From Deltaproteobacteria bacterium (GTDB taxonomy: Bacteria; Desulfobacterota; BSN033; WVXP01), in NCBI GenBank assembly GCA_019308905.1, contig JAFDHF010000003.1:10282-74281 (forward strand): DNA of 64,000 nt, read 5' to 3'. The notes beneath the pieces were generated by a model. The model worked only from the letters and a program-made list of their open reading frames with translations, did not search any database and had not been told where the DNA came from. The position numbers and the translations under genes were made by a program. The first letter of the stretch is position 1. Each line of letters opens with the position of its first letter. Positions 20,087 to 46,850 of the stretch are shown here, one piece after another.

Positions 20087-20707
20087 ATGATAAACGGAGA
20101 ATCGAGATTTTTCGTACCCAGCAAGCTCCTGAGGACTCTGCATGTTTTGACCGAGATAGGGCGGCAACCCGACATCAGCCAGCACCAGCTTGCGTTGCGG
20201 GCCAGACTGAGCAGCTCGCAAATCAACAACTACGTCAAAGAACTGAAGGCCAAGGGCCTGGTCAATACCAAGGGCAATACGAACCGGACGATGCGCTATC
20301 TCCTGACTCCTGAAGGGCATCGGACGAGATCTTCGCTGCTGGTGGCATACTCGGTGGATGTGATTCAGCTTTACTCCCGGGTGAAGAGGGAATTCGCGGC
20401 AAAATTGCAGCAGATCTTCGACGAGGGATTGGCCAGGGTCATTCTCTTTGGGGCTGCAGAAACCGGGGAGTTGGCTTTGACCGCCTCGAGGGAAACTGAT
20501 CTGGACGTCATCGGTATTTCCGACAACGACCCGCTGAAACACGGTAAACCCTTCGGAGATCTGAGGATCATCCCTCCTTCGGAAATAGAGGGTTTGAACC
20601 CGGATGGAATCGTCATTACTTCCTTTGGACGGTTGGGAGAAATCCTCGAGAGCCTGCGGTTCTTGGAGAAAAAGGGGATAGCCATGAGGAGCCTCACTGA
20701 TGAATAG
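20087..20707 (+). CDS. Winged-helix regulator with C-terminal Rossmann-like (PglD/NeuD-N-like, Rex-like architecture) domain
   Basis: N-terminus is MarR/wHTH-like (ISQHQLALRARLSSSQINNYVKELKAKGLV). C-terminus RVILFGAAETGELAL...DVIGISDNDPLKHGKPFGDLRIIP...DGIVITS resembles the NeuD/PglD N-terminal nucleotide-binding fold. Confidence 0.55.
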   Translation: MINGESRFFVPSKLLRTLHVLTEIGRQPDISQHQLALRARLSSSQINNYVKELKAKGLVNTKGNTNRTMRYLLTPEGHRTRSSLLVAYSVDVIQLYSRVKREFAAKLQQIFDEGLARVILFGAAETGELALTASRETDLDVIGISDNDPLKHGKPFGDLRIIPPSEIEGLNPDGIVITSFGRLGEILESLRFLEKKGIAMRSLTDE

Positions 20708-20749
20708 ACACTGCCCGGAAGAGCACCCCGGGGTGACAGGAAAGAGGCC

Positions 20750-22276
20750 ATGAAGGGAATGGACAAGATTAGAGTTTTTGTAATGGATTGCGACGGCGTC
20801 CTTACGGACGGGACGATTTATTACGGCAAAGACGGGGAGAGCCTGAGGAAGTTCAACACGAGGGACGGCATGGCGATCGAATTACTCCGGCGACACAATG
20901 TCCGGACTGCCCTCGTTTCCGGCGAGGACTCTGCCGCCATCTCGCAGAGGGCTGAAAAGCTTCGGATCGACAGGATATGGCTGGGGGTGAAGGACAAGAA
21001 AGGGGTATTGCGAGAGCTGGAGAGAACCTTCGATGTTTGTGCAGAAGAGATTGCCTACATCGGTGACGACATCAATGACATAGAGCTCATGAAATCAGTC
21101 GGCTTCCCCATTGCCGTAGCCGATGCCAGCCCCAAAGTCAAGAATGTGGCGACCTATGTCACCAGGGCGGCCGGGGGCCGTGGCGCGGTTCGGGAGGCGA
21201 TCGAACTCCTCCTGGATGAGAGGGCGAAGAAGGCCATCGATGTGGCGGGTCGTCTGATCGGTGAATCGCAACCGTGCTTTCTGATAGCCGAAATCGGAAA
21301 CAACCACCAAGGAGAGGTCGAACTGGCCAGGACATTGATCGACATATCCGGCGAGGCGGGAGTGGACGCGGTCAAATTCCAAAAGAGAGACAATCGAACC
21401 CTCTTGACCCGGGAGGGGTTTCACAAATCCTACGGGGGAACCCATAGCTTCGGCAGGACCTACGGCCAACACCGGGAATATCTGGAACTGAGCAAGGATG
21501 ATTTCGCCTCTCTGAAGGAATACGCCGAATCCAAAGGTCTCATATTCTTCTCGTCGGTCTGGGACGAAAAGAGTGTGGATGTCCTGGAATCGATCGGTGT
21601 TGCCCTCTATAAGATTCCCTCTGCCGATCTCACCAATATCAGGCTCGTGGAGAAGGTCGCCGAGATCGGGAAGCCTACCATACTCTCCACGGGCATGAGC
21701 TTCCTCCATGAGATCGACTCCGCTGTGCACCTCTTTCTCAAGAGGAACGAAAACCTCATCCTGATGCACTGTGTAAGCGTCTATCCTCATCCACCGGCCC
21801 TGGCGAACATGAGAGTCATCGAGACCCTGAGACAGCGGTATCATCTCCCGGTTGGGTATTCTTCGCACGAGGAGGGTATTCTCGTGACCAGCGCCGCTCC
21901 GCTCCTCGGTGCTGTTGCGATAGAGAAGCACGTTACCCTGGACCGGAATATGAGAGGGAGTGACCACAGGGCCTCGATCGAAAAGGAGGAACTGGTCAGG
22001 ATGGTGAGCCTGATCCGCCTCTACGACAAGGCTCGGGGGGATGGAATCAAGACTCTCCTGCCCGATGAGATTGAATCGAGAAAAAAGCTCGGCAAAAGCA
22101 TCGTTGCCAAAAGGGACATCGAGAAGGGTGAGGTACTCAACTGGAGGAACATCACCTACAGATGCGCCAACAACGGGATGTACACCCTGGATTTGAAGGA
22201 CGTCCTTGGCAAGGTCAGCTCTTGCAACATCAAGCGTGACGAGTTGATAAGCGAAAGGGTGATCGCCAATCCATGA
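20750..22276 (+). CDS. Bifunctional KdsC-type HAD phosphatase :: NeuB-family nonulosonate synthase (with SAF domain)
   Basis: Residues 1-165 match KDO-8-P phosphatase (VMDCDGVLTDG...GDDINDIELMK...TRAAGGRGAVREAIELLL). The remainder matches NeuB/PseI (CFLIAEIGNNHQG...VDAVKFQK..., C-terminal SAF). Confidence 0.85.
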   Translation: MKGMDKIRVFVMDCDGVLTDGTIYYGKDGESLRKFNTRDGMAIELLRRHNVRTALVSGEDSAAISQRAEKLRIDRIWLGVKDKKGVLRELERTFDVCAEEIAYIGDDINDIELMKSVGFPIAVADASPKVKNVATYVTRAAGGRGAVREAIELLLDERAKKAIDVAGRLIGESQPCFLIAEIGNNHQGEVELARTLIDISGEAGVDAVKFQKRDNRTLLTREGFHKSYGGTHSFGRTYGQHREYLELSKDDFASLKEYAESKGLIFFSSVWDEKSVDVLESIGVALYKIPSADLTNIRLVEKVAEIGKPTILSTGMSFLHEIDSAVHLFLKRNENLILMHCVSVYPHPPALANMRVIETLRQRYHLPVGYSSHEEGILVTSAAPLLGAVAIEKHVTLDRNMRGSDHRASIEKEELVRMVSLIRLYDKARGDGIKTLLPDEIESRKKLGKSIVAKRDIEKGEVLNWRNITYRCANNGMYTLDLKDVLGKVSSCNIKRDELISERVIANP

Positions 22277-23229
22277 AGATCATTCACTTTGCCATCAACG
22301 ATCCAGCAGGAGCCGCCATCGCTTTCGTGAAGGCCATCAACCGGTACACTCCCCACCGGGCAAGGCTCGTCACCTGGGAGATTCGGTACAACTTCATGTT
22401 CGAAAAGGATTTTCACATTCCCTGGATGGACAAACAGGCCCTCGAGTTTCTCTATGAAGAGATGTGGGAGGCGGACATCTTCCACTTCCACATGCTTATC
22501 GACGAAACCCATCCTGTGGGCGGGTTCAGAATCTCCGATTTTGCCAATTGTAAGAAAATCCTCCACCACCACCACGGCCATCCGGATTTCAGAGCGAATC
22601 CCGACAAGTACAGGAAGAAGTACCGAAATCCGAAAAGAAGGGTCTTAGCCAGTACTCCCGACCTACTGCACCTTATCCCTGAGGCGCTGTGGCAACCCAA
22701 TCTGGTTCCGATCAACGACCATTCCTACCTGCCTGCGTGCGATTCCAACAACGGCGTCGTGAAGGTAGGCCAGGCACCGACGCGGAAGGATCTGAAGAAC
22801 ACGGCGGAGTTGGTTCGGGTCGCGAGCAGGCTCCGATCGGCCGTAGGCCAGTCAAGGCTGGAACTGGAGATCATCGAGAATTGCCTCCACAGGGATTGCC
22901 TGGAGAGAAAGAAGCGGTGCGACATCATCTTTGATCACATGCAGGGTTACTACGGGGTCTCATCCTTGGAATCCCTGAGCCAGGGCAAACCTGTGATAGC
23001 GGGCTTGGACGATTGGAACGCGGGATGGATCAAAAAGTTCGCGGAGTCAAGTGATCTGCCCTGGGTTTTGGCCCGGAATCAGGACGAACTCGAGGGACAG
23101 CTCTTGAGGCTTGTAGAAGACCCGGACCTGCGCGTTGAAATCGGCTGCAAAAGCAGGAGGTTCATGGAGGAACACTGGACCGAAAAGCAGGTGCTCAAAC
23201 CCCTTTTGGAGGTCTATGCATCTCTTTGA
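22273..23229 (+). CDS. Hypothetical protein, GT-B-like glycosyltransferase fold (possible HP-motif transferase)
   Basis: No strong family signature. Rossmann-like halves; His-rich HHHHGHP segment. ATGA overlap with the upstream synthase gene. Confidence 0.4.
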   Translation: MKIIHFAINDPAGAAIAFVKAINRYTPHRARLVTWEIRYNFMFEKDFHIPWMDKQALEFLYEEMWEADIFHFHMLIDETHPVGGFRISDFANCKKILHHHHGHPDFRANPDKYRKKYRNPKRRVLASTPDLLHLIPEALWQPNLVPINDHSYLPACDSNNGVVKVGQAPTRKDLKNTAELVRVASRLRSAVGQSRLELEIIENCLHRDCLERKKRCDIIFDHMQGYYGVSSLESLSQGKPVIAGLDDWNAGWIKKFAESSDLPWVLARNQDELEGQLLRLVEDPDLRVEIGCKSRRFMEEHWTEKQVLKPLLEVYASL

Positions 23230-23348
23230 GAGGGCGTTATCAAGAGGTTGAAGGCCTTGGTCCAGCACGGAGATTTCACCGCTTATCGGAATCCACCTCT
23301 TCTGGCAGTGAATTCCTCACCTCACCACTTTGCATAGGAGTCGATGCG

Positions 23349-24032
23349 ATGGCAACGCCCCGCCGAGTCACAGAGAGCGAGGAATACACCTTTACCGATC
23401 TCGAGAAACACTTTACAGAAACACTCTGTGTAAGAGACTATGGAGCCCGGTACCTTTCCTATCTGGCCGACCTGATGGTACGTGTTGATCTGCAAGCGGT
23501 AGAAAACATCACGGATGTTCTCGTCGAGGCCGGAGAGCGGGGCAACACGATTTATTCCATTGGAAACGGCGGCAGTGCTGCCACGGCCTCCCACTTTGTC
23601 AATGACATCACCATCGGCACAAGAACCAGGGGATCGAAACCCATCAGAGCTTACAGCTTGGCCGACAACCTGCCGGCTCTGACCGCCCTTGCCAACGATG
23701 AGGGATACCCCAGTGTTTTTGTCAGGCAGTTAGAAGGTCTGTTGCAACCCGGAGATGTGGTCATCGCTTTTTCGGTGAGTGGGAATTCGAGAAATATCCT
23801 GGAAGCCTTGAGATATGCCAAGCAGCACCTAGCCATCACAATCGGTTTGACAGGGTTTGACGGTGGCCGGATGCTCGAAATCGCGGATATGACTCTGCAT
23901 ATTCCGACTCGCCCCGGCGAGTATGGACCGGCAGAGGATCTGTTCACGGTTCTGACCCATCTCATTTGCAGCTACATAAGGCTCGACCGGGAGGCTGCTC
24001 TGCGGCCTTTACAGAGTGAGCAGAGGCATTGA
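23349..24032 (+). CDS. SIS-domain sugar-phosphate isomerase, GmhA (sedoheptulose-7-P isomerase)-like
   Basis: IYSIGNGGSAATASHFVNDI and VIAFSVSGNSRNILEAL are GmhA-type SIS motifs. ATG 23349 with AGGAG 8 nt upstream. The ORF-track start at 23226 is less likely. Confidence 0.75.
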   Translation: MATPRRVTESEEYTFTDLEKHFTETLCVRDYGARYLSYLADLMVRVDLQAVENITDVLVEAGERGNTIYSIGNGGSAATASHFVNDITIGTRTRGSKPIRAYSLADNLPALTALANDEGYPSVFVRQLEGLLQPGDVVIAFSVSGNSRNILEALRYAKQHLAITIGLTGFDGGRMLEIADMTLHIPTRPGEYGPAEDLFTVLTHLICSYIRLDREAALRPLQSEQRH

Positions 24033-24126
24033 GCACATCCGGGTTTTCCGAGCTTGTCCCTTGCCCTGATCAAGGTCCGCGAGTGGTCGATAGCCATGTA
24101 CTGGCCTGGATAAGAGGAATCCTCCC

Positions 24127-24774
24127 GTGAATATTGTTTCGTTCATTCCCGCCAGAGGCGCCTCCAAGGGGGTCCCGGGAAAGAACAAGAAGATTCTCGG
24201 CAACAAGCCTCTTGTCGCCTGGACGGTGGAGGATGCCTTGGAGAGTGAACTCATCGATAGGGTCGTCGTGTCGACCGAGGACGAGGAGATTTCGAGAATC
24301 GCAAGAAAGTGGGGGGCAGAAGTCATCCCCAGGCCCAAAGAACTTGCCACCGACACGGCGGACCTCCAGGATGCCGTCGAGTTCACCCTGAACAGGTTGC
24401 GGGAGAACGGTTATGACCCGGACTACATGGTTGCGATGTTTCCGACTTCGCCTTTCAGGAGAAGAGGGCTTGTCGACTCGGCCATCAGGATGGCCTTGGA
24501 CAATCCCGACATCTGCTATGTCCATTCCCTGAAGCGTGTCGATTTCGATTTGGAGGATCTCGTCGATTCCGATGGGACTCCTTACATGTCCCATGAGGTC
24601 GCAAGGGATCTCAGGGGTTGCGTCTTTTCCACGAAGATGAACTTTGGGGTCGAGAGGATGCGTGAGGGGCCGGCGGGGAGGCGTGGGATCATCCTGCTCC
24701 CGGACGAATCGATAGACATCGATCTGCCCCGAGACTGGGAAGCCGCCGAAAGGGCATGTGCGAGATGGCTGTGA
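24127..24774 (+). CDS. NeuA-like acylneuraminate (nonulosonate) cytidylyltransferase (CMP-sugar synthetase)
   Basis: IVSFIPARGASKGVPGKNKKILGNKPLVAWTVEDA is the CTP_transf_3 signature. GTG start. Confidence 0.8.
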   Translation: MNIVSFIPARGASKGVPGKNKKILGNKPLVAWTVEDALESELIDRVVVSTEDEEISRIARKWGAEVIPRPKELATDTADLQDAVEFTLNRLRENGYDPDYMVAMFPTSPFRRRGLVDSAIRMALDNPDICYVHSLKRVDFDLEDLVDSDGTPYMSHEVARDLRGCVFSTKMNFGVERMREGPAGRRGIILLPDESIDIDLPRDWEAAERACARWL

Positions 24775-25214: not shown

Positions 25215-25217
25215 TAC

Positions 25218-27098: not shown

Positions 27099-28270
27099 AG
27101 AGGACGACAGGACTCTTCGTCTGCAATTGTTACTATCCTCTATCCGCAGGAGTGGGAAACGCCACCGCCAATCTGTGCCGTGCCCTGAAGGAGTATGGGG
27201 GCATCGATCCAGTGGTTATTACCCCGAAACGGTCGCAGAGCCCCGATCGGGAGGTGCACCAGGGGGTCACCGTTATACGTGTTCCAGGCGGAGTCTGGGC
27301 CGGAAATCCTGTGCTTTCCTTTCTTTACTATCCCTGGTTCGCAATCCATCTCCTACGGGAGGTGGTCAGGTACAAGCCCCTTTTTGTGCTTTTTCAGACA
27401 GCATGGGAAGGCGGCCCGCTCATTCCCCTTGTCCGCATGGTCAGCAAAACGCTCGTTGTCGTTCATACCCACGCGGATGTCCACTATGCCAGTCGATTTG
27501 AATCTTGGGCCCGGTTAGCCTATGGCAGGGCAGACATAGTCATGGGCACCACCACGCAGTACCTGCGAGACGTGGAATCCCGTTACATGCGCGCCGACGC
27601 GGTTCTTCTGCCGAACGCTTACTATGCCCCGCGACTTCCCGAAAGCCGAGAGGAACTGCGCAGCCGCTATGGATACTCCCCCGGGTTTGTTCATGTGACC
27701 GCCGTCGGCAGAATGGTTTATGAACTCGATTTGGAGACAAAAGGATTCAGCCATCTGATCGAAGCAGCAGCCAAGGTACCGGGGGTTTGGCTTCACATGT
27801 TCGGCACAGGTCCGGCCAGGCAGAGATATGAGCGGATGGCCGAGAACCTGGGGGTTGCCCTCAGATGCACTTTCTATGGCCACCAGCCCGGGGATGTCCT
27901 CTTGCGGCACCTGAAGGCCGGGGATGTGCTGGTTATTTCTTCCCTCAACGAAGGCCTAAGTATGGCCCTCATCGAGGCCTTGTGCCTTGGGGTTCCGATA
28001 ATCGCCACCAGAACCGCCGGAGCCTTGGACTATATCCGCAATGGTTATAACGGGCTCCTCATCCCTCCGGGAGACACCGCCTCGCTGGTAGAAGCCCTTG
28101 AGTATGCCACGAGAGAACCGGACAGACTCGCCCGGATGGGCAGAGAGGGTAGGCTCACCTTTGAGCGGAGTTTTGCCCCACCCGTCATTGCATCGGAATT
28201 CGTGCAGGTGATCTCGCGTGTATTGGAGTCCCGACGGATGAGAACAAGAACCCCTGTAGAAACCACATGA
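27041..28270 (+). CDS. GT4-family glycosyltransferase
   Basis: ISSLNEGLSMALIEALCLGVPIIATRTAGALDYIRNGYNGLL is the E-x7-E motif. Start uncertain (overlaps the AsnB 3' end). Confidence 0.8.
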   Translation: MDASDVRNVARQARREHVLKRTTGLFVCNCYYPLSAGVGNATANLCRALKEYGGIDPVVITPKRSQSPDREVHQGVTVIRVPGGVWAGNPVLSFLYYPWFAIHLLREVVRYKPLFVLFQTAWEGGPLIPLVRMVSKTLVVVHTHADVHYASRFESWARLAYGRADIVMGTTTQYLRDVESRYMRADAVLLPNAYYAPRLPESREELRSRYGYSPGFVHVTAVGRMVYELDLETKGFSHLIEAAAKVPGVWLHMFGTGPARQRYERMAENLGVALRCTFYGHQPGDVLLRHLKAGDVLVISSLNEGLSMALIEALCLGVPIIATRTAGALDYIRNGYNGLLIPPGDTASLVEALEYATREPDRLARMGREGRLTFERSFAPPVIASEFVQVISRVLESRRMRTRTPVETT

Positions 28271-29703
28271 AAGCGGTTGTCTATCGGCCCAACGACGGCT
28301 TTCTCTGCGAAGAGAACGGGACCAGTGCACCGACCACGTACAGGGTCTTCCCATACTCCCTTGCCGTTTGCGCGGCTTCCCTGGAGGAATCCGGCGTGGA
28401 GGTGGGGGTGGTGGATGCCGCGGCAGGACGGCTGGGGTGGCAGAAGGCGATCGGCCTGGTCGAGAAGGAGAGGCCCGAGGTGGTGATAGTGGCCGTGAAC
28501 AACATTGCAGCAGGCCTCGATATGCAGGGGATAGAGCAGATGAAGTCCCGCCTGGCCATACCTGTGGTGGCCCTCATGACACACCCCATGGAAGAGGAGA
28601 CGATCCGTTCCTACCCCTTCCTGGACGTGGCGATTCGGAGGGAATGGAGTTCGACTGCGGTCGACGTCCTAAAGGCCTTGGCGGGAAGAAAAGACCTTGC
28701 CCTTGTTCCCGGTGTGACCCTGGTCCGTGACGGCGAAGTGGTCAGGACGGAAGGGCGTCCCCATCAGGGATTGGACGAAAGGCCTGTTCCCGCCTTACAC
28801 CTCTTCCCCATGAAACAGTATGACTCTTATCAGATAGCCATGTCAGAGGGGTGCAATTACCACTGCTCCTTTTGTTGGTTTTGCGGCTATCCACCATCAG
28901 GTTGGTCGGGCAGGAATATCGACCGCGTCCTGGAGGAACTCCGGAGGTTGAAGAGCTACGGGAGTAAGCCGGTTTTCACCATAGACGACGAGTTGACCTT
29001 CGACCCGGAGTACGCGAAACGGGTGTGCCAAGGCATCGTCAAGGCCAAGATCAACATGATGTTCTCGGCAAACACCCGGGCAGACAGAGCAGAGGACGAA
29101 CTACTTGAAATGATGTCTCGCGCCGGATTCTTCAATCTGCAGTTCGGCGTGGAATCAGGATGCCAGGAGATCCTGGACAGGAACGGGACCAGAAAGACCC
29201 TGGAGCAAGCAAAGGCGGCCTTCGCCTTGCTGGAGAAACACCGGATCGCTTCGAAGGTATTTTTCTTGATCGGCTTGCTCCACGAGACCAGGGAGACCGT
29301 ACAGCAGACCTTTCGTTTTGTCAGGGAGGAGCTCAACCACTACGATGCCTCCTTTGATATCGCCATCCCGTACCCGGGTACGAGCATGCACAGATTCCTC
29401 AAACGGAAGGGGTGGATTCGAACCCTCGACCCGGAGAACCTCTCGTGGATCTATTTCCATGTATACGGCTGCAGGCAGCTCGCAGGGACACCCATGAGGA
29501 AACCTTTCTGGCGGATTGGAAAGATGACCTTTGACGACTTGTACGAGATGGAGAGGAAGTTCTACCGTTATGTCCCTCGGGGCGGTCTGGTGCCGCAGCT
29601 CAAGCGTCTGATGTTCAATCGTGCTTTTCGAAGGACGACCAGGGATCTGCTCTGGCACGAACCGGGCGAGCTCCTCGGGCTGGCCGCCCGCCTCCTCAGT
29701 TAG
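28267..29703 (+). CDS. B12-binding (class B) radical SAM enzyme
   Basis: N-terminal cobalamin-binding Rossmann domain, then CNYHCSFC (CxxxCxxC) and the radical SAM core. Confidence 0.8.
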   Translation: MKAVVYRPNDGFLCEENGTSAPTTYRVFPYSLAVCAASLEESGVEVGVVDAAAGRLGWQKAIGLVEKERPEVVIVAVNNIAAGLDMQGIEQMKSRLAIPVVALMTHPMEEETIRSYPFLDVAIRREWSSTAVDVLKALAGRKDLALVPGVTLVRDGEVVRTEGRPHQGLDERPVPALHLFPMKQYDSYQIAMSEGCNYHCSFCWFCGYPPSGWSGRNIDRVLEELRRLKSYGSKPVFTIDDELTFDPEYAKRVCQGIVKAKINMMFSANTRADRAEDELLEMMSRAGFFNLQFGVESGCQEILDRNGTRKTLEQAKAAFALLEKHRIASKVFFLIGLLHETRETVQQTFRFVREELNHYDASFDIAIPYPGTSMHRFLKRKGWIRTLDPENLSWIYFHVYGCRQLAGTPMRKPFWRIGKMTFDDLYEMERKFYRYVPRGGLVPQLKRLMFNRAFRRTTRDLLWHEPGELLGLAARLLS

Positions 29704-37766: not shown

Positions 37767-38964
37767 CTCTGGTGGTACGGGATGTCCGGTTGGAGTGTCG
37801 AGCAAGTCGTTTCGGGATGAATGCGTAATGGTCCAGGAAGTCGTTCTCAGGAGCCTTATGCGAAAGGCAATCATGCCTTTCGGGAAATACGACGGGAAAA
37901 AGGTCTTCAACTTCACCCTCAATGTTTTGGAACGCTTCATGCGGAGGAGAAGGCTCGTGTCTTTTCCGATAGGGATCGATCTGATCAGCACGACCAGGTG
38001 TAATCTCAAATGTTTCTATTGCAAGAAGTACGACTGGGGAGGGAAACAGGATTTCACGAGGGACGACTTCGAGTTTGTTGCAAAGACGTTTTTTCCGAGA
38101 CTGTTGTATGTGAAGTTTGGATCTGCAGGTGAAGCGCTGGTCAACAGGGATCTGGGTTTTATGCTCGAGAAATGTCGTGAGTATGGCGTCTCCGTGGTAA
38201 TGAATTCGAACGGCTCCCTCCTCGATGAGGAAAAAATCGAGATGCTCTTCGAGCAGGACGTGAAGATCTTCGGGATATCACTCGACGGGGCCACAAGGGA
38301 GACGGCAGAGGGGATTCGAAGGGGCCTCGATTTTGAGCTATTGATCGAAAAGATCAGAATGATCAGAGACTTGAAGGAACGGTACGGGCGGAAGTACCCG
38401 ATCTTGACGGTCAACTTCGCCGTGATGAGACGGAATATCACGGAACTCCCGTCGTTTGTCGGCCTCATGTCGGACCTGGGAGTATCTGCCGTCCGTGTGA
38501 TGTTCCTCTACGTCCACGAGTTCATGGATCCTGGGGAATCCCTGTTCCTGCATCGGGAGCTGGTGGAGAAGTATTTTGCCTTGGCCGGGAAAAGTGCGAG
38601 GGCCTCCGGCATCAGGCTGCTCTTGCCCCCTGGGTTGGAGGGAAGAAACGGGGACAGGATGTGCTTTTTCCCCTATCACGAGATAGGACTGAGTCCTGAC
38701 GGGTCGGTCGCCTTTTGCTGTAATGCATGGGGTGAAGAGAAGATGGGGAATGTTTTCAAGCAGGATTTCATGAGTGAAATCTGGAACTCCGGGAGATACC
38801 AGGAGTTGAGGCGGCGGGTGAACAGTTCCAGGCCGATGCATACCCTCTGCCGAGAGTGCTCGGCCCTGGACAGAGGGGTCGGTGGGATCTCGAGGCATTT
38901 TGCCCGAGAGCACCACACCCGTGTAAGGGAGATGATTTTATCCCAATACGGGCGGCCTGTTTGA
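37756..38964 (+). CDS. Radical SAM / SPASM-domain protein
   Basis: CNLKCFYC (CxxxCxxC) and a C-terminal Cys cluster (CCNAWGE...CRECSALD) fit a SPASM/twitch auxiliary cluster. Probable start is ATG 37828. Confidence 0.75.
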   Translation: MTFDSGGTGCPVGVSSKSFRDECVMVQEVVLRSLMRKAIMPFGKYDGKKVFNFTLNVLERFMRRRRLVSFPIGIDLISTTRCNLKCFYCKKYDWGGKQDFTRDDFEFVAKTFFPRLLYVKFGSAGEALVNRDLGFMLEKCREYGVSVVMNSNGSLLDEEKIEMLFEQDVKIFGISLDGATRETAEGIRRGLDFELLIEKIRMIRDLKERYGRKYPILTVNFAVMRRNITELPSFVGLMSDLGVSAVRVMFLYVHEFMDPGESLFLHRELVEKYFALAGKSARASGIRLLLPPGLEGRNGDRMCFFPYHEIGLSPDGSVAFCCNAWGEEKMGNVFKQDFMSEIWNSGRYQELRRRVNSSRPMHTLCRECSALDRGVGGISRHFAREHHTRVREMILSQYGRPV

Positions 38965-39010
38965 TACAGGACATGCGCCCTTTTGGGGCCGGTGGAGGCG
39001 GTCCCTGGCC

Positions 39011-40510
39011 ATGAAAGTCGTACTCATCAATCCTCCCCAGGTATTTTCGAAGTCACAGGTTGCAGCCGGTGTCATCCCCCCCTTGGGTCTGCTCTACCTA
39101 GCCGCTGCTTTGAGGCAGTCAGGGCATGTGCCCCTGATAATCGATTCTGTTGTCGAGGCCGCAACAAATATCTACAGGATCAGCGGCAGTATTGCCTGCA
39201 GGGGGCTTGAGATCGACGAGATCGTCGCCCGTATACCGAAAGATACGGGTTTGGTGGGGGTAAGCAATCTCTTTTCTTTCGCCTTCCCGGTCGTGAAGAG
39301 GCTTACAGAGCAGATCAAGAGGGTCCGCCCGGATGTGGGAATCGCCGTGGGCGGCGCCCACCCATCGGCCTTGCCCTTGGAGACCGTGTCCGAGAAGTCG
39401 ATCGACTTTGTGGTCATAAGCGAAGGCGAGGAAACACTCACCAAACTCCTAAACAATCTGGGAGACCATGAAGCTTACAGGGGGATAGATGGGTTGGCCT
39501 ACAAGGGCAGGGAGGGAATTCCCTGCGTCAATCAGAAGGCCGAGTTTATCGAGGATCTAGATGGTCTTCCCTTCCCTGCGAGGGACCTGGTTCCCCTAGA
39601 GAAGTACTATGAGATAGGCGAGGCCCATGGTCCGACCCAGGGCAGGAGGTGGACGCCGATTCTCTCGTCAAGGGGCTGCCCGTACCAGTGTACCTTCTGT
39701 ACCCCGAGGCTGTGGGGAAGAAGATACCGCGTTAGATCGGCCGAGAACGTGCTGGCCGAGATAGAGGAGTGCCAGAGGGAGTACGGAATAAGGGAGTTTC
39801 ATTTCGAGGACGAGAACCTGACGATAGACAAGAGAAGACTCATGGAGATTTGCAATGGGATCATCGAACGAGGCCTGGAGATAAGATGGCAGACTCCCAA
39901 CGGAATAAGAGCATCTGTTACCGATGTGGAAATGCTCGATCTGATGAAGGAGTCGGGGTGCTGTCACGTCACCGTGGCTCCTGAATCAGGCTCCGAAAGG
40001 GTTCTCAACGAAATAATAAGAAAGCGGCAGGACCTCGCAAAGGTGACGCGCCTTGTCAGGCATGCCCACCGGAGGGGCCTAAAGACCGCAGCCTATTTTA
40101 TCATGGGCCTACCCGGTGAGACCAGGAAGGACGTGGAGATGTCGATCGATTATGCCTGCCGCCTGGCAAAGGCAGGACTGGACGAGGTCGTTTTCTCGAA
40201 TTTTGTTGCTCTTCCGGGTTCGGAACTTTTCGACAGGCTTCTAAAGGAGGGAAGATTCCACGGGGATTGGTCGAGACTCGTGGCCATGGGTGATATTTCG
40301 ACTGCAGAATCCTGGTCCGAGGGAATCACCTCCAGAGAGCTCAAGGCGCTGAGAAGGAAGGCCTATCTGAAGTTCCACTTGGTCAAAGCCTTTTGGTACC
40401 CACTGAAGGCCATGAGATCGGTTCTGAACGTTCTGAGAAAAAGGGAAGAGCTCAAGACAGAGAGGGTGTTGATAACCTTTATCAAGAGGATCGGCTTGAG
40501 AACGGGTTGA
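39011..40510 (+). CDS. B12-binding (class B) radical SAM enzyme
   Basis: N-terminal B12-binding fold (VVLINPP...GHVPLIID), then CPYQCTFC and the radical SAM core. Confidence 0.8.
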   Translation: MKVVLINPPQVFSKSQVAAGVIPPLGLLYLAAALRQSGHVPLIIDSVVEAATNIYRISGSIACRGLEIDEIVARIPKDTGLVGVSNLFSFAFPVVKRLTEQIKRVRPDVGIAVGGAHPSALPLETVSEKSIDFVVISEGEETLTKLLNNLGDHEAYRGIDGLAYKGREGIPCVNQKAEFIEDLDGLPFPARDLVPLEKYYEIGEAHGPTQGRRWTPILSSRGCPYQCTFCTPRLWGRRYRVRSAENVLAEIEECQREYGIREFHFEDENLTIDKRRLMEICNGIIERGLEIRWQTPNGIRASVTDVEMLDLMKESGCCHVTVAPESGSERVLNEIIRKRQDLAKVTRLVRHAHRRGLKTAAYFIMGLPGETRKDVEMSIDYACRLAKAGLDEVVFSNFVALPGSELFDRLLKEGRFHGDWSRLVAMGDISTAESWSEGITSRELKALRRKAYLKFHLVKAFWYPLKAMRSVLNVLRKREELKTERVLITFIKRIGLRTG

Positions 40511-40634: not shown

Positions 40635-42065
40635 ATGAACGAAATCAAGGACGGCAACCCGAGCTTTCTTCTGATCGGGCACTACCGGTGCGGCACCTCT
40701 CTGCTGAGGCACGTGATCAACCGCCACTCCAGACTGCTACTGACGACGGAGGCTCATTGGCTCCCCCAGGTGTTTCAGGCCGGGGCGGTCTTCCAGAAAT
40801 TCTTCGAGGTTAACCCCGTTGAGTTTGAACTGAACGAGTTGCCCCTGCAGAGAACTTCCCGCTGGTATCATGGGATTCGTGCATTGCACTCGGCTCTTTT
40901 CGAAGAACATCGGGACAAGATATGGGGCATGACAGTAATCGGCCACGGAAACGCCGCATACGCCGATTATCTGTTTACCCTGTATGGGGAAGCCAAGTAC
41001 GTCCTGGCGATTCGTGATCCGAGGGATATTTACCTTTCATATCTTCGAACCAATATCGGGGGGGAATACGGTGCGTATACGTTGAAGACCTTCTTGAACC
41101 ATCTCAATATGAACGGCTTGCCGTACCTTGTAGTTCGATATGAGGACATGGTCATTGACCCGAGGAGACAGATAGAGAGGCTGTGCTGTTTTCTCGGGGT
41201 GGACTATGAACCGGGTATGCTGGAGCCACTGACTCGCAGACTGTCCGGGAACTTGACGCCGGCCCTCCAAAGGGCCGCTTTGAACGAGGAGTATCCGGTG
41301 GGAAATCGGGCACTGGTCGAAAGGTGGAAGTCCCAATTGACCGACGAGGCACTCCTGAGACTGAACGATCAGGTGGATGCCATCGATCAGTTGGGATACC
41401 CGGTCGTCAGGGCCGAGGGTGCCGGGTTGCGCCACAGCATCAGAGACGAGGTCTCGGGGACCTTGATCGGCATGAAGGACTCCCTTACCAAAAGGGATTG
41501 TTTCTCGGGTGCCCTTCCTGAAAGGGTCGACATTCTTTCGGCAGGGGCGTTCGGGATCCGATTTCAGAACCGGCCTGGCAACGGCACGGCAAGAATCAGA
41601 ATCGATGGTTTCGGAGAACTCGCTGAGAGCATGGAGTCGCCCCTGCTTTACTACCATGCCGTCTACGGATCTCCTTTACCCTTCCATCCTGTCTATGGGG
41701 AGTCTTTTCCCACTGAGAGGAAGTGGAAGTATCTGTTGAAACAGAACAAGAGGAGGCTCCTGCTCTTTTCCGCCGGAGGTGCGACCAGGGCGTTTTTATC
41801 AGGGCAAACGATCCCGACCTCGGAATTCGAGATCGTAGGCGTGATCGACAATCACAAAAGGGGATTCATGGACCATGGGGGCAAGCGGTACAGGATCTAC
41901 CCGCTCAAGAAGGCACTGGAAGTCGACCACGATGCGATTCTCATCACCTCTCCCACCTTCCGTCATGAGATAAAGGAGTGTTTGGTCAAATGCGGGCTCA
42001 GGGAGAACAGGGATTTCTACTGCTTTTTCCCAAGCCGGTGTGCGGGGAGTGGAAAGTTCGAATGA
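40635..42065 (+). CDS. Sulfotransferase (P-loop 5'-PSB type) fused to Rossmann-like PglD/NeuD-N-like module
   Basis: FLLIGHYRCGTSLLRHVINRH is the PAPS 5'-phosphosulfate-binding loop. C-terminal RLLLFSAGGATRAFL...FEIVGVIDNHKRGFMDHGGKRYRIYP...DAILITS is the repeated module. Confidence 0.7.
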   Translation: MNEIKDGNPSFLLIGHYRCGTSLLRHVINRHSRLLLTTEAHWLPQVFQAGAVFQKFFEVNPVEFELNELPLQRTSRWYHGIRALHSALFEEHRDKIWGMTVIGHGNAAYADYLFTLYGEAKYVLAIRDPRDIYLSYLRTNIGGEYGAYTLKTFLNHLNMNGLPYLVVRYEDMVIDPRRQIERLCCFLGVDYEPGMLEPLTRRLSGNLTPALQRAALNEEYPVGNRALVERWKSQLTDEALLRLNDQVDAIDQLGYPVVRAEGAGLRHSIRDEVSGTLIGMKDSLTKRDCFSGALPERVDILSAGAFGIRFQNRPGNGTARIRIDGFGELAESMESPLLYYHAVYGSPLPFHPVYGESFPTERKWKYLLKQNKRRLLLFSAGGATRAFLSGQTIPTSEFEIVGVIDNHKRGFMDHGGKRYRIYPLKKALEVDHDAILITSPTFRHEIKECLVKCGLRENRDFYCFFPSRCAGSGKFE

Positions 42066-42128
42066 AGACGTGTTTCCCTGTTCCCGTCGGAATGCACCAC
42101 GAAAATCGAACACTATAGAGGTGGAATC

Positions 42129-43211
42129 ATGATCAGCGTAGTCATACCTGTTTACAATGAAGAGAAGAACATCGATCTACTGTACGATCGGCTCTCCTCT
42201 GTTCTGTCTCAGCTAAAGTATGACTGGGAGATCATCTTTGTGAACGACGGGAGTGAAGATAATTCTCTCGAGATACTGAAAAGGTACGCAAGCCAGGACA
42301 GAAGAGTAAAAATCATAAGTCTCAGCAGGAATTTCGGCCATCAGGTCGCACTGAGCGCAGGAATGCGGGAGGCAAGGGGTGTCGTGTGTGTCACCATGGA
42401 TTGTGATCTCCAGGATCCTCCTGAGCTGATTCCAGCCATGATAAGAAAATACGAAGAAGGGAACAATATTGTCTATGCGAGGAGAACGAACAGATCCGAC
42501 GGTTTCCTGAAGAAGCTGACCGCAAGGGTCTATTACAAGATATTGGATTTGATCTCCGAGGTCCGCGTCCCCCAAAACGTCGGGGACTTCAGGTTGGTCG
42601 ACAGGAAGGTTTTGACGGTCCTGAACAACCTGCCGGAGAAATGCAGGTACCTTAGAGGTATGGTCAGTTGGGTCGGATTCAAGCAGGCCTTTGTGGAATT
42701 CGACAGGCCCAACAGATGCAATGGGAAGACCAGTTACACCTGGATAAGGATGCTTGAACTCGCTGCAGCCGGTATTCTGAGCTCCTCGCTCCTGCCACTA
42801 AAGTTGGGGATGTACATTGGAATGCTCTCGATGATTGTGGGTTTTGGGTTTCTCATATACATGATCGGAGACACTCTTGTATTCAACACCGTGTACCCTC
42901 TGTACAGGTGGCTCATGGTAGTCGTCTTTGTCTTCTTCGGGCTCAGTTTTATTCTCATTTGGATAATGGCGGAATATATAGGAAGGATCTACAAGGAAGA
43001 AACTGGAAGGCCGCTTTACATCATCGACGAGAAGACAAATCTTGAAACTCAAGTCAGTGAAGATAATCAATTGTACAGTCCCGTATGTGATTGCTCCTGG
43101 GTGGAGATGGGTGAACGGACGTTGAACGGCGACCGTGTCGATTACGGATCTGACCCTCTTGCGGCCGGGCCTGATGGAGAGAGTCTCGAAGTCGCTCACT
43201 CATTGCAGTAA
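42129..43211 (+). CDS. GT2 polyprenyl-phosphate sugar transferase (ArnC/GtrB/DPM1-like)
   Basis: MISVVIPVYNEEKNIDLLYDRL...EIIFVNDGSEDNS...DCDLQDPP, plus two C-terminal TM helices, as in ArnC/GtrB. Confidence 0.8.
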   Translation: MISVVIPVYNEEKNIDLLYDRLSSVLSQLKYDWEIIFVNDGSEDNSLEILKRYASQDRRVKIISLSRNFGHQVALSAGMREARGVVCVTMDCDLQDPPELIPAMIRKYEEGNNIVYARRTNRSDGFLKKLTARVYYKILDLISEVRVPQNVGDFRLVDRKVLTVLNNLPEKCRYLRGMVSWVGFKQAFVEFDRPNRCNGKTSYTWIRMLELAAAGILSSSLLPLKLGMYIGMLSMIVGFGFLIYMIGDTLVFNTVYPLYRWLMVVVFVFFGLSFILIWIMAEYIGRIYKEETGRPLYIIDEKTNLETQVSEDNQLYSPVCDCSWVEMGERTLNGDRVDYGSDPLAAGPDGESLEVAHSLQ

Positions 43212-43230
43212 ATATGCCGAAGCGACGGAT

Positions 43231-44379
43231 ATGGAGAAGAACATACTGATCATCAACAACGAATTTCCGCCGATCGGAGGGGGTGCCGGAAATGCCTCTT
43301 TCTACCTTGCCAAAAATCTCTCGAAACTCGGGCATAGAGTCAGGGTTGTAACTGCGGGGTTCCGTGACCTCCCTCCCAGGGAGGAGGAGGGCGGAGTCAC
43401 AATCAACCGTGTGAAATGCAGCAGAAGGAAACGGTTTGAGTCGGGGCTTTGGGAACTTCTGTCATATGCTGGAAGCGCCGTGAGATTCATATCCCGGGAA
43501 TTGAAGGCCGGCGGAGAAAGGTATGATATCTCGATATGCTTCCACACCCTTCCAGCAGGGATGGTGAGTTATGCCTTGCTAAGAAACTCGAATGTACCGT
43601 ACATAGTCATGCTGCGAGGGGGGGACGTGCCGGGTTTTCTTCCCGAGAGGTTCAGATACTACCACATGGTTTCCATGCCGGTGATCAAGGCTGTGTGGAA
43701 GAACGCACGGCACGTGGTGGCGAACTCGAAAGGACTGGGGGAGCTGGCTGGAAGAACGGCATGCAGGATCGGCCGGGAGGTCCTGGTCATAGAGAACGGC
43801 GTCGATCTTTCCTCATTTCAAGCCCGAAGCAGACACCGGTTCGATGGAACCCTGAGAATGCTCTTTGTGGGCCGGTTGGAGAAACAGAAGGGCATTCCCT
43901 ATCTGATAGAGGCCGTGTCTCTGCTCGCAGTGGAAGACCGCGAAAGGGTCAGAGTCGATCTGATCGGAGAAGGACCCGAAAGGGCGGTTTTGGAAGAGAT
44001 GATAGAGGAGAGAGGGCTCCGCAATTTCAGGTTCCTGGGGTATTTCCCTCATGACAGAATCAGCACGCGATTCGGGGAGGCGGATCTGTTCGTCCTCCCA
44101 TCCCTTTACGAAGGAATGCCGAATGCCCTTCTCGAGGCGATGGCAGGAGGGCTTCCTGCATTGGTAACGGATATCATGGGCAACAATGAATTGGTTGAGA
44201 ATGAAATAAACGGTTTTCTGGTCCCCCCTGCTGATCCGTGGGCGCTGAGGGCTGCCATAATGAGATTCCTGGAACGCCCCGAGTTGCTCTCAGAATTCCG
44301 AGAAAACACCCTGTGCAGGGTACGGAAATTCGATTGGATGAAGGCGACACAAGAGTTGAACAACCTGATAATGAGCTAG
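43231..44379 (+). CDS. GT4-family glycosyltransferase
   Basis: ILIINNEFPPIGGGAGNASFYLAKNL N-terminus and PSLYEGMPNALLEAMAGGLPALVTD (E-x7-E). ATG 43231. Confidence 0.85.
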   Translation: MEKNILIINNEFPPIGGGAGNASFYLAKNLSKLGHRVRVVTAGFRDLPPREEEGGVTINRVKCSRRKRFESGLWELLSYAGSAVRFISRELKAGGERYDISICFHTLPAGMVSYALLRNSNVPYIVMLRGGDVPGFLPERFRYYHMVSMPVIKAVWKNARHVVANSKGLGELAGRTACRIGREVLVIENGVDLSSFQARSRHRFDGTLRMLFVGRLEKQKGIPYLIEAVSLLAVEDRERVRVDLIGEGPERAVLEEMIEERGLRNFRFLGYFPHDRISTRFGEADLFVLPSLYEGMPNALLEAMAGGLPALVTDIMGNNELVENEINGFLVPPADPWALRAAIMRFLERPELLSEFRENTLCRVRKFDWMKATQELNNLIMS

Positions 44380-45437
44380 TGCCCGTCCGGAAAGCCCCTG
44401 TTCACGTCCGATCAGTTCAGAAAAAAGACTCGAGTCTCTGGGATTTCCTCGAACCACCCGACAGTCAAGAATCAAACCCGAACGGCCGCCTGTCAGATAG
44501 ACCTTATGACCGTAACACGGCTCACGTCCCCCTTTTTCGATGATGCCGGTATGATCTTCAAAAAACGAAACCACCTTCTCAGAGGCTGCAACCTTCTCCC
44601 CCCGAATCACCCGACGCTCGGTCTGATCGATCACTCGCCCGAAGATCATCAGCTCCCGCTCCAGCTTCTCCATCAATACCCGAGCCCGGCAAAACTCTCC
44701 TACATCATCGCTCTGAAAATGATCCAATGCCGATATGGCCTCTGTAGTATAACCCACAACCCGACGAGCCACCCCGAGAAGCTCTCGGTAAGCCTTCTGG
44801 CGAACTTTGCTGCTCCTGCTGTTGACAATGGCCATGACTCGCCTGTTTGCCACCCGTCGGTGGTCCGAAAACCGATACCCAGGCACAGGCCGAAGCCGTT
44901 TTCCCTCAATCAAAAGCCGAGTGATAAGCCGGATGCCATCCTCCAGAAGCCTGGAGTCCGTAGGATAATGGATATTGCTCTCAATGGCCGTGGAGTCGAG
45001 CCGAACCGTACGACCCTTCTTGAACCCTTAAACCACAGCGTATCGGATGAGCAGCCTGTTGACCGCCTCCCGGGTACCGGGCCTAAGTTGCTTGATGTTT
45101 TATTGAAGGGTCGATACCCCAGCCGCTGCCCCATCCCAAGCCGACAAGAGGCCCGAAAGGACTGAGAATCCTCCAGATGAAAGGCCAGCTCCTCATAGCT
45201 CAAATTGCGATACTGCTTCAATATGGTACATCGAAGGACCTGCTCGGCCGTCATCCCCTCACGCCCCGTGTCAGGACGCTTGGCCCGAACCATATCCCGA
45301 TAAACAAGATCATAGATGCCTGGATTGTCATCGAGAACTCTCGAAATGGCCTCCAGTTCTCGGGCGACCTGGTTGCGCGGCATGGTGTGGAAAATACTCA
45401 GTTGAGAAATCCGTTTTTCACGCATCTTTATCCCCAC
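44290..45437 (-). pseudogene. IS5/ISNCY-type transposase, frameshifted and 3'-degenerate
   Basis: N-terminal fragment (44910-45437) has a DUF772/InsH-N-like segment (...GREGMTAEQVLRCTILKQYRNLSYEELAFHL...). It continues in another frame (44290-44913) into a DDE-region remnant. The tail overlaps the upstream GT4 gene, so the reading frame is not intact. Confidence 0.65.
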
Positions 45438-45580
45438 AGAATAGAGATTTGTCTAACTATTTCAAGACCTTATTGTGAGGATGATACACCGAATAACATG
45501 AAAATACAACACAAAAATGACCACATATTCAATTAAATCAATCAATTAGAGTTTCCGGATGGAGTCTATCTACCTGCAAT
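44380..45580 (-). mobile_element. Degenerate insertion-sequence remnant with AT-rich junction
   Basis: The only minus-strand coding signal in the window. Base composition drops sharply at 45440-45580 (runs of A/T such as ATTCAATTAAATCAATCAATTAG). No intact terminal inverted repeats were identified by eye. Confidence 0.5.
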
Positions 45581-45581
45581 C

Positions 45582-46850
45582 ATGATCTTTCCAAAGGACA
45601 AGACGGCCGCTCCCGGGATACACCCGACCGATTCCGGGGATTTTGTCTCCCGTGCCTGTGGAGATCCCGCAGATGTATACGTGGCCGAAGACTCTGATGG
45701 CCTGTTCATGGGGGACCTGATGACCAAAACCGGAGATCCTTTCTATGAAGGATCGAGCATCTTGAAGGTTTCATACTGGTACAAGAAGTCTTTGGTGGTT
45801 CCCCGCTTCAACCTCGTCCTCTTGGAGAAGAAGATCCGGTTCCACTTGGTGGACATCTCTTCCGCGTGGAAGAAGGTAGAAGAGCAATCGGATAGGGTGG
45901 TAACGTCGATTCTTTCTACGTTTGACTTCTTTGAGAGGTCTCCCGATGCAATGGAGGATTTTGGCCGGCTCCTTGGCGACTACTACAGCAGAAAGGGTGT
46001 CGAGCTGGATAAGATGGGTCGCTCCGAAGAGGCAAAGGCGGCGATGCTTACCTCGATCTCCTGTTTCCTGAATCAGGCCGACGTGCATCGGAATCTCGCG
46101 GTGATTCTCGCCCGGCAGGGCGAGCTGGAAAGAGCCGTCCGCTACATCCGTGGTGCTTTACAAATCGATCCACGAAAAGAGGAGTACTGGTCTCTTCTGA
46201 TCGCACTGTTGAACAGATGCGGGCTCGACTCGGAAGGGATCGACTGGATGAGGAAGATGGAGGGGGTGATCCCGCCTGATCCGGGATTGCTCAGAGCCCT
46301 TGGGGCATTGGGGTTGACCTATCACCAGGAAGATATGATCGCCATTGTGCTCGGCTTGATCGAGAAGATTGAGCCAGAGGATGCCATGATAGGTCCCTTG
46401 AAATCAGCCCTGGAAGGCGATCTGAGTGAGGCGGTCAGGCAATATGAGGCACTGCCCACGAAACCGGGCAGCAGGAGCATCCCCCGGGATCTCTCAACGG
46501 CAGGGTGTGAAAGGCCCTTTTCCAACCAAGAGATGCTGAAAACGTTGAGATGTCTCCTTCCGGAGGGGAGACGGCGAATCGCGCTCTACACGGCAGGAGG
46601 AGCTACCAGATCTCTCTTGGAAAGGACCTCCTTTGCCGGCTTCGAGATTGTTTGCATCATCGACAGGGACCGTTCCGGAGGCACACTTAACGGCTATCCG
46701 ATTGTGACACTCAGCACGGCGCTGGAACAAGGAGTGGACTATATCATCGTCTCCAGCCCTGCTTTCTATAGCGAAATCAAGCCGAAACTACAGGCAAGGG
46801 GCCTTAGAGAATTCAACGATTTCAGCCCCCTCCCGCCCCACTCTTCTTGA
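45582..46850 (+). CDS. TPR-like protein fused to Rossmann-like PglD/NeuD-N-like module
   Basis: Central helical/TPR-like repeats. C-terminal RIALYTAGGATRSLL...FEIVCIIDRDRSGGTLNGYPIV...DYIIVSS is the repeated module. Start uncertain. Confidence 0.5.
   Translation: MIFPKDKTAAPGIHPTDSGDFVSRACGDPADVYVAEDSDGLFMGDLMTKTGDPFYEGSSILKVSYWYKKSLVVPRFNLVLLEKKIRFHLVDISSAWKKVEEQSDRVVTSILSTFDFFERSPDAMEDFGRLLGDYYSRKGVELDKMGRSEEAKAAMLTSISCFLNQADVHRNLAVILARQGELERAVRYIRGALQIDPRKEEYWSLLIALLNRCGLDSEGIDWMRKMEGVIPPDPGLLRALGALGLTYHQEDMIAIVLGLIEKIEPEDAMIGPLKSALEGDLSEAVRQYEALPTKPGSRSIPRDLSTAGCERPFSNQEMLKTLRCLLPEGRRRIALYTAGGATRSLLERTSFAGFEIVCIIDRDRSGGTLNGYPIVTLSTALEQGVDYIIVSSPAFYSEIKPKLQARGLREFNDFSPLPPHSS

Follow-up and report, generated by a model that had tools for sequence, protein, structure and literature searches.

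A 64,000-nucleotide stretch of contig JAFDHF010000003.1 from a Deltaproteobacteria bacterium (the window) carries one short sequence pattern that recurs within 27 kb, on a winged helix-turn-helix (wHTH) protein, a membrane protein, a sulfotransferase and a tetratricopeptide repeat (TPR) protein. What is this pattern, are its occurrences related, and what could such proteins use it for? Analysis showed that it is one Rossmann-like domain of ~90-100 amino acids (aa) with the order strand-helix-strand-loop-strand-helix-strand, hereafter the module, and that it falls, as a divergent member, within a catalogued group of short Rossmann domains that bind nucleotides, and is no new kind of domain. The overall explanation preferred, with a probability of about 55%, is an accessory domain that binds a nucleotide or nucleotide-sugar and perhaps dimerises. 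The four open reading frames (ORFs) named in an earlier note on this DNA were confirmed at their coordinates; that note had spoken of five different proteins, and the actual count is five module copies in four proteins, as follows.

20087-20707, plus strand: wHTH-module protein, 206 aa, with a MarR-type winged helix at residues ~13-73, a long helix at 75-112 and then the Rossmann-like module
20423-20704, plus strand: module copy 1, residues ~113-206 of the wHTH protein; loop LFGAAETGE, IGISDND ending strand 2, and GIVITS
34595-36901, plus strand: polytopic membrane protein, 768 aa, with ~10-11 transmembrane segments up to residue ~343 and a 425-aa soluble tail with two module copies
36185-36445, plus strand: module copy 2 (membrane copy 1), residues 531-617; degenerate loop YLYGRCDQ, and VVETE after strand 2
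36488-36769, plus strand: module copy 3 (membrane copy 2), residues 632-725; loop YALGDRG, and FFDEA after strand 2
40635-42065, plus strand: sulfotransferase-module protein, 476 aa
41751-42032, plus strand: module copy 4, sulfotransferase residues 373-466; loop FSAGGATR, VGVIDNH after strand 2, and AILITS
45582-46850, plus strand: TPR-module protein, 422 aa, with TPR repeats at ~139-208, directly downstream of an insertion sequence (IS) remnant
46569-46838, plus strand: module copy 5, TPR protein residues 330-419; loop YTAGGATR, VCIIDRD after strand 2, and YIIVSS

In all five copies a glycine-rich loop followed strand 1 and an acidic residue stood at the end of strand 2, the degenerate loop of membrane copy 1 retaining the first glycine alone. 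A module hidden Markov model (HMM) run on the ORFs found no further copies in the rest of the 64-kb window. Five copies in 27 kb are far above background, because none occurred elsewhere in the 64 kb and no second copy occurred within 6 kb in 60 related loci. The partner domains of three of the four proteins were recognised by Pfam. The wHTH protein passed the cut-offs of MarR_2 (PF12802, 32.6 against 27 bits), HTH_24 (31.4 against 21.9) and MarR (27.5 against 24.6), the sulfotransferase ORF passed those of Sulfotransfer_3 (PF13469, 57.9 bits) and Sulfotransfer_1 (43.8 bits), and the TPR ORF matched TPR_2 with 33.5 bits at residues 166-198. The best NCBIfam match of the wHTH protein was an EPS-associated MarR model, below cut-off. 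In eight sulfotransferase-module relatives the RxGT (R18-x-G20-T21) and RDPRD (R127-D128-x-R130-D131...S135) motifs were unchanged, and these invariant motifs presumably correspond to the 3'-phosphoadenosine-5'-phosphosulfate (PAPS) loops. Pfam thus upheld the partner descriptions proposed earlier for the wHTH, sulfotransferase and TPR proteins, and hydropathy upheld that of a polytopic membrane protein at 34595-36901, for which there was no family match. The GT-C (glycosyltransferase) label given to the latter found no Pfam (E ≤ 1), NCBIfam (E ≤ 0.01) or PDB-sequence (E ≤ 0.01) match for the membrane part, whose fold was not predicted.

The sulfotransferase and TPR copies were 43.8% identical over 89 aa (BLASTP E = 2.6e-17). 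Pairwise comparison did not link the membrane-protein copies to the other copies, HMMs from two or three window copies alone linked neither the wHTH nor the membrane-protein copies, and a word-indexed search of proteins with the 116-aa module of the sulfotransferase returned no matches. Because the HMMs of two or three window copies failed to link the remaining copies, database-enriched profiles were needed. A profile seeded from the sulfotransferase and TPR copies only was searched against 1.84 billion cluster representatives (E ≤ 1e-3) and retrieved 141 proteins, including three wHTH-module proteins. The module HMM, rebuilt from 165 matched stretches of these proteins and run on the window ORFs, found the TPR protein (E = 8.6e-39), the sulfotransferase (E = 2.9e-36), the wHTH protein (E = 5.8e-14) and the membrane protein (E = 1.2e-3), while the next best window ORF had an E value of 0.96. 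The membrane-protein score was made up of two weak domains, 525-568 and 631-716 (per-domain E values of 0.17 and 1.6), at the placements given in the earlier note. The weak membrane-protein scores and the failure of the pairwise and thin-profile searches would also fit a reading in which these two segments are generic alpha/beta units without specific relation to the module, so that it recurs three times and not five. The Foldseek matches, which were insignificant and to generic two-Rossmann enzymes, and the 0.6% hhalign result between membrane copies 1 and 2 point the same way.

Such a generic origin is nevertheless very unlikely in view of the profile-profile comparison. The hhalign inputs were three homologs of the membrane protein and the 27-member wHTH family, each compared with the module profile. 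The wHTH copy demonstrated 99.3% (P = 1.3e-20), membrane copy 1 92.8% (P = 3.9e-7, 80 columns) and membrane copy 2 95.8% (P = 7.2e-9, 91 columns). With nine control alpha/beta domains of the window (B12-binding, flavin adenine dinucleotide, SIS, HAD, cytidylyltransferase, GT4 halves and methyltransferase) the probability did not exceed 8.9%, in alignments of no more than 33 columns, and with the reversed module profile it did not exceed 1.4%. Membrane copy 1 also matched the wHTH family profile (94.9%), and its HMM found the wHTH homolog of locus L064 (E = 1e-3). The membrane-protein homologs in loci L062 and L065 scored higher with the module HMM (3e-5 and 2e-5), and the secondary-structure order in an AlphaFold2 (AF2) model, with two consecutive strand-helix-strand-strand-helix-strand units at the expected places of residues 480-768, matched that of the module. 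The profile-HMM and structure check suggested beforehand was run and gave related segments (HMM E = 5.8e-14 for the wHTH copy; hhalign 93-99% against controls of ≤9%). With regard to the claim of one module on all these proteins, the three copies on the wHTH, sulfotransferase and TPR proteins were certain, and the membrane copies were probable, by profile-profile comparison only. It is held with high confidence that the wHTH, sulfotransferase and TPR copies are homologous and fall within the PglD_N/Methyltransf_14/C2185-like_N-type domain group, and the two membrane-protein copies are probably distant relatives of the module.

The group to which the module belongs comprises PglD_N, Methyltransf_14, C2185-like_N and the CoA_binding/CoA_binding_3 type of Rex, WbpM, PglF and WbaP. 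Pfam matching of 140 database relatives placed 40 of them with Methyltransf_14 (the C-terminal domain of sugar C-methyltransferases), 33 with PglD_N (counted at E ≤ 1e-3), 15 with C2185-like_N and 9 with CoA_binding. When a 40-sequence module profile was searched against PDB sequences, the matches were 3nkl, a WbpM/PglF-type fragment annotated as UDP-D-quinovosamine 4-dehydrogenase (E = 1e-9, profile positions 13-69), 2g6t (residues 18-91, E = 2.9e-8), taken here to be a CA_C2185-type protein from the Pfam family name, 2vt2, the Bacillus subtilis Rex (E = 5e-7), 4rv9, TylC3 residues 316-394 (E = 0.009), 7txp, VioB residues 2-77 (E = 0.015), 2py6, an FkbM methyltransferase (E = 0.17), and WbaP chains (E = 0.5). 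The likeness to PglD_N and the C-terminal domain of Rex claimed earlier therefore holds at the family level, by the PglD_N matches among the relatives, the Rex sequence match and the Rex structures that were the top folds of the wHTH model. The family consensus was (K/R)hhLYGAGxxTxxLL...hxhhGhhDxxxxKxGxxhxGhxI...DxIhI(S/T)Sxxxx(E)I.

The window copies look unannotated because all are below Pfam thresholds. For PglD_N (PF17836) the best window copy was that of the TPR protein (13.5 bits, E = 0.11, against a cut-off of 23.4), and for Methyltransf_14 (PF08484) the window wHTH protein reached 20.1 bits against a cut-off of 23.5, while its homologs P0011, P0023 and P0006 were above it (27.5, 30.4 and 27.0 bits). 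Methyltransf_14 matches covered only profile positions ~50-150 of 160, and the other window copies had no Methyltransf_14 match when isolated segments were run against Pfam. Isolated-segment matches to MptE-like, B12-binding and TMP-TENI were sub-threshold and were rejected as spurious. A PF22674.3 match was on record for all close wHTH homologs, including P0001, whose sequence is identical to that of the window wHTH protein; the local PF22674.2 model had no window-protein match at E ≤ 1. Standard Pfam thresholds thus pass over all five copies, and the ~90-aa stretches here and many in other glycan clusters can be labelled PglD_N/Methyltransf_14/C2185-like_N-type accessory domains.

Partner domains, copy numbers and positions were tallied among the module relatives retrieved from the database. 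The partners were GT2 glycosyltransferases (18 relatives), FkbM methyltransferases (13), sulfotransferases in the window architecture (13 representatives), GT4/Glycos_transf_1 types (~8), radical S-adenosylmethionine (SAM) domains (5), B12-binding domains (4), wHTH of the HTH_24 type (3), GDSL lipases (2) and class I methyltransferases (several). One module copy was found in 116 proteins, two in 19, three in 4 and four in 2. By position, 90 occurrences fell in the C-terminal third of the protein, 38 in the N-terminal third and 24 in the middle. The module is therefore mobile and has been joined many times to glycan-tailoring enzymes, and the earlier description of an add-on module was sustained by relatives that carry it N-terminally, centrally or C-terminally, in one to four copies, beside many glycan enzymes. 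The L061 cluster had the membrane-protein pair together with a module at the N-terminus of a class I methyltransferase (11937-13154, E = 8.5e-15), a partner absent from the window.

Loci L065 and L062 shared the order deacetylase, membrane paralog, two-module membrane protein, methyltransferase, radical SAM, B12 radical SAM and GT2, with no sulfotransferase-module gene between the B12 radical SAM gene and the GT2 gene. A metagenome scan for sulfotransferase-module relatives yielded one sulfotransferase without a module. In the window, an IS remnant of two minus-strand ORFs (44290-45437, DUF772 transposase domain) lies immediately upstream of the TPR-module gene and overlaps the 3' end of a GT4 gene (43135-44379) by 90 bp. 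Both the sulfotransferase gene and the TPR gene are accessory additions, because the former is absent from L065 and L062 and the latter follows the IS remnant; only the membrane-protein and wHTH copies belong to conserved cores. The guanine-cytosine content fell to 0.51-0.52 over 42-46 kb.

Across the relatives, conservation reached ≥90% at two positions only, a glycine in the loop that follows strand 1 and the aspartate ending strand 2. The AGGAT loop and D405 were unchanged in eight sulfotransferase-module proteins with only 28-41% overall identity. Among the 27 proteins of the wHTH family, G122, E125, E128, D146 and S179 were invariant, and A123, A124, T126, D148 and K151 were conserved at ≥90%. 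In Rossmann folds, the conserved loop glycine and the strand-2 acidic residue are phosphate and ribose contacts and not core positions. A ligand site is favoured because the conserved positions are such contacts, and judged from the sequences it is somewhat more probable than the contrary that the module binds a nucleotide or nucleotide-sugar. The glycine-rich loop and the strand-2 acidic residue would hold the ribose-phosphate of a nucleotide or nucleotide-activated sugar. The ligand may be a cytidine monophosphate (CMP)-nonulosonate or its nucleoside diphosphate (NDP)-sugar precursor, the cluster encoding a NeuB-type synthase and a cytidylyltransferase, and the module may double as a dimer interface, as in Rex and WbaP. 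The sulfotransferase copy would position or sense the nucleotide handle, while the wHTH copy would give a Rex-like ligand-responsive DNA-binding protein that controls its own nonulosonate operon. Membrane copy 1 is probably structural only, because its loop is degenerate (YGRCDQ) and the acidic residue is missing in the homolog P0171.

Several known systems resemble the module. The N-terminal domain of PglD, NeuD and VioB is likewise a short Rossmann-like unit, matched by the 33 relatives and by VioB residues 2-77 as given above, and PglD_N contributes to uridine diphosphate (UDP)-sugar binding. In PglD and NeuD a left-handed beta-helix follows the Rossmann unit, whereas none occurs in the window proteins; the absence of a hexapeptide beta-helix reported earlier was corroborated, as none of the four proteins had a Pfam hexapeptide match at E ≤ 1. 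The Rossmann unit of PglD/NeuD is also N-terminal, whereas the module is C-terminal in three of the four window proteins. The C-terminal domain of TcaB9/TylC3 was matched by 40 of the 140 relatives and by several wHTH homologs, three of them above cut-off; it anchors a deoxythymidine diphosphate (dTDP)-sugar in TcaB9, and the zinc and SAM domains upstream of it are absent from the window module proteins. The N-terminal domain of the CA_C2185/HI1244 homolog (2G6T) was matched by the module profile (2.9e-8) and by 15 of the 140 relatives, and no function was found on record for the 2G6T protein.

The closest solved structure by sequence was 3nkl, which represents the CoA_binding_3 (PF13727) accessory domain of WbaP, PglF and WbpM and shares with the module the pattern hhhYGAGxxG ... 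hhFhDD..xK.G..h.G; WbaP itself was a marginal profile match (E = 0.5). Like the module, this accessory domain is a non-catalytic add-on, in its case to sugar-nucleotide enzymes. The module partners here (sulfotransferase, TPR, MarR-type wHTH and a different membrane protein), unlike those of WbaP, PglF and WbpM, are not phosphoglycosyl transferases or dehydratases. The isolated domain of unknown function (DUF) of WbaP was stabilised by uridine mono-, di- and triphosphate (UMP, UDP and UTP), makes up most of a beta-hairpin-swapped dimer interface, appears to regulate the enzyme allosterically and is common to PglF-like dehydratases (PMC10942596). A literature search on the Pfam accessions of the module and on flagellin-glycosylation regulators found nothing on the module except this WbaP paper. 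Given the spread of the module over many tailoring enzymes, a role in allostery or dimerisation like that of the WbaP DUF may be far more general in glycan assembly.

A number of observations weigh against nucleotide or nucleotide-sugar binding by the module. No window copy attains a Pfam gathering score, and the loops stray from GxGxxG, as in GAAETG of the wHTH copy and YGRCDQ of membrane copy 1, the latter copy being without its acidic residue in P0171. The AF2 model of the membrane tail, made from four sequences, had a predicted local distance difference test (pLDDT) value of 70.9, a medium confidence, and Foldseek of the two-module tail against PDB found no match at E ≤ 1e-3. Hydropathy and positive-inside counting leave the membrane side of the tail ambiguous; a lysine/arginine-rich loop at 210-260 followed by ~4 transmembrane segments suggests a cytoplasmic tail, and if the tail were periplasmic, nucleotide binding there would be unlikely. 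For the TPR protein, which lacks a catalytic domain, the purpose of a domain that holds substrate is not obvious. Among 60 other genomes there was no second module copy within 6 kb of the wHTH gene, so that a pathway-wide shared sensor is not the general design. Part of this evidence would suit a docking or oligomerisation module without a ligand, whose copies pair with themselves or with one another and so bring tailoring enzymes, TPR adaptor and membrane protein together in one complex, the Rossmann pocket being vestigial. The C-terminal domain is the dimer interface in Rex structures, the TPR carrier has no enzyme domain, the loop of membrane copy 1 is degenerate, and large relatives have the module between catalytic domains in the manner of a connector; the related domain of WbaP is also a dimer interface (PMC10942596). 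Docking alone is nonetheless rather unlikely. Whatever the architecture, conservation falls on the loop glycine and the strand-2 aspartate, which are ligand contacts and not core or interface positions, and hetero-pairing cannot be the general role of the wHTH-module protein, because other genomes have its gene without a second module gene within 6 kb.

A third account, in which the wHTH protein is a divergent Rex that links glycan synthesis to redox state and the enzyme-borne copies bind nicotinamide adenine dinucleotide (phosphate), finds support in the fold of this protein. Its AF2 model (mean pLDDT 89.9) showed a winged helix at 13-73, a 38-residue helix at 75-112 and a five-stranded alpha/beta unit, and Foldseek against PDB returned Rex chains at ranks 1-16 (E ~1e-5, TM-score ~0.35), the top whole-chain fold matches. 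The module profile also matched Rex sequences (5e-7 to 1e-2), and there was a weak NCBIfam Rex match (E = 0.0025). Rex repressors have the same layout of an N-terminal winged helix and a C-terminal Rossmann domain; they differ in that the overall TM-score is only ~0.35 and in that the wHTH protein has the 38-residue connecting helix and a shorter Rossmann part. The module ends at ~90 aa, whereas the Rex chains (208-224 aa) were matched to ~172 and then continue. The wHTH protein was rejected as a true Rex on its score (NF003995, 17.4 bits against a cut-off of 126), its GAAET loop and its MarR-type wHTH. Its loop reads FGAAETGE, LFGAAET(A/G)E in 25 close relatives, and not GxGxxG. Unlike Rex, the wHTH-module gene is linked to neuB and not to respiratory or fermentation genes, and the nearest PDB sequence relatives of the module are sugar-nucleotide enzymes and not Rex. 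Redox sensing is accordingly quite improbable, and the nucleotide- or nucleotide-sugar-binding accessory domain is retained as the preferred explanation.

Relatives of the wHTH-module protein were found in 60 species genomes, mostly of Desulfobacterales with some of Nitrospirota and Planctomycetota, at ≤48% identity. A NeuB-like gene followed the wHTH-module gene on the same strand in 46 of the 54 loci with enough downstream sequence and was directly adjacent or overlapping in 32 of those 46; the two genes often overlapped or stood ~4 bp apart. In the window, a gene for a KdsC-NeuB fusion stands immediately downstream of the wHTH-module gene. The homolog of the 318-aa protein encoded next (22273-23229) was found in 37 of the 60 loci, and that of the cytidylyltransferase in 22 of the 60. 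Locus L064, whose wHTH protein was 66% identical, had the order Maf-type (MptE-like) gene, wHTH, neuB, 318-aa gene and cytidylyltransferase. The Maf-type gene there (149-2664, 632 aa) and the start of the wHTH-module gene share 4 bp; Maf-like ORFs had 9 occurrences in the 60 genome loci, and the window had no Maf homolog.

Because the wHTH gene is tightly linked to neuB, a ligand-responsive regulator of nonulosonate synthesis is a reasonable hypothesis, and on sequence grounds the wHTH-module protein may tentatively be viewed as a ligand-responsive regulator. It is doubtful, though conceivable, that the wHTH-module proteins form an uncharacterised class of transcription factors which sense a nucleotide-activated sugar, for example a CMP-nonulosonate or its NDP-sugar precursor, by means of the mini-Rossmann domain and control flagellin or surface nonulosonate glycosylation, with the same sensor on tailoring proteins. 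If so, the sulfotransferase, TPR adaptor and membrane protein copies would subject several tailoring steps to control by one metabolite. A search for operators, palindromes and promoters over 18800-20800 found no more than promoter matches at chance level and inverted repeats that lie within the upstream ORF, and a literature search found no characterised nucleotide-sugar-sensing regulator of nonulosonate biosynthesis. The wHTH-module family is a concrete candidate regulator. It is conserved in three phyla or more, and its gene nearly always stands immediately ahead of that of a NeuB-type synthase, in some cases with a Maf-type flagellin glycosyltransferase gene before it.

The two-module membrane protein (34595-36901) and its neighbour (33042-34598) were distant paralogs, with 22% identity over 266 aa (E = 1e-3), and only the second of the pair carries modules. 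Neither had a match in the local Pfam, NCBIfam or PDB sequences. A newer Pfam lists Competence-induced_Ccs4_N (PF27757) for the homologs of 33042-34598 in L062 and L065. Three homologs of the module-bearing membrane protein were found; membrane copies 1 and 2 were conserved in P0170 and P0171, and the loop of membrane copy 2 was GLGAAG and GLGATG in homologs.

The genes around the module genes were as follows.

35-10039: flagellar block encoding FlgI, FlgJ-like, FlgN-like, FlgK, FlgL, FliW-like, flagellin, FliD and FliS-like proteins
6362-7204: flagellin, 280 aa
19153-19713, plus strand: UpxY/RfaH-like antiterminator at the operon head (NCBIfam antiterm_UpxY E = 1.1e-21, 77.5 bits, below the 100-bit cut-off)
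20750-22276, plus strand: fusion of a KdsC-type phosphatase and a NeuB-type nonulosonate synthase (NeuB_NnaB E = 7e-93; KdsC 165.5 bits, above cut-off)
22273-23229: 318-aa protein with no Pfam match (E = 5e-133 in L064)
23226-24032: GmhA-like SIS isomerase
24127-24774, plus strand: cytidylyltransferase of the CMP-ulosonate synthetase type (NCBIfam PseF E = 2.8e-29 and KdsB-type models, all below cut-offs)
28267-29703, 37756-38964, 39011-40510, 46897-47859, 47903-49057 and 49916-50998: six radical SAM genes

The position of the glycan cluster beside the filament genes suggests a flagellin glycosylation island, and the gene content of the whole window is consistent with a flagellin or surface glycosylation island that has a modified nonulosonic acid at its centre. 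The 318-aa protein is an uncharacterised core member of the nonulosonate cassette. By its sequence the cytidylyltransferase would supply the CMP-sugar in the cluster, and the sugar product may be Kdn-like or another unusual ulosonic acid. The operon headed by the antiterminator takes in the wHTH-module protein, the KdsC-NeuB fusion, the isomerase, the cytidylyltransferase and the six radical SAM enzymes, together with an asparagine-synthase homolog and several glycosyltransferases and methyltransferases. Pfam gave a B12-binding domain in the radical SAM protein of 39011-40510 and SPASM in those of 37756-38964, 46897-47859 and 49916-50998, and the unusual density of radical SAM genes suggests that the sugar is extensively C-methylated or otherwise modified by radical chemistry. 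The phosphatase part of the KdsC-NeuB fusion was seen in only 2 of the 60 related loci, and the UpxY/RfaH-like antiterminator stood near the wHTH gene in only 2 of the 60 other genomes.

Two giant proteins with TPR arrays were encoded at 10148-13333 and 52635-55049, with Glyco_trans_1_2/DUF3880 and with Glyphos_transf/Capsule_synth, respectively. These TPR-glycosyltransferase proteins resemble the flagellin O-glycosyltransferase FlmG in architecture (cf. PMC7591256), and homologs of each lay close to the wHTH gene in 11 loci of Desulfobacterales.

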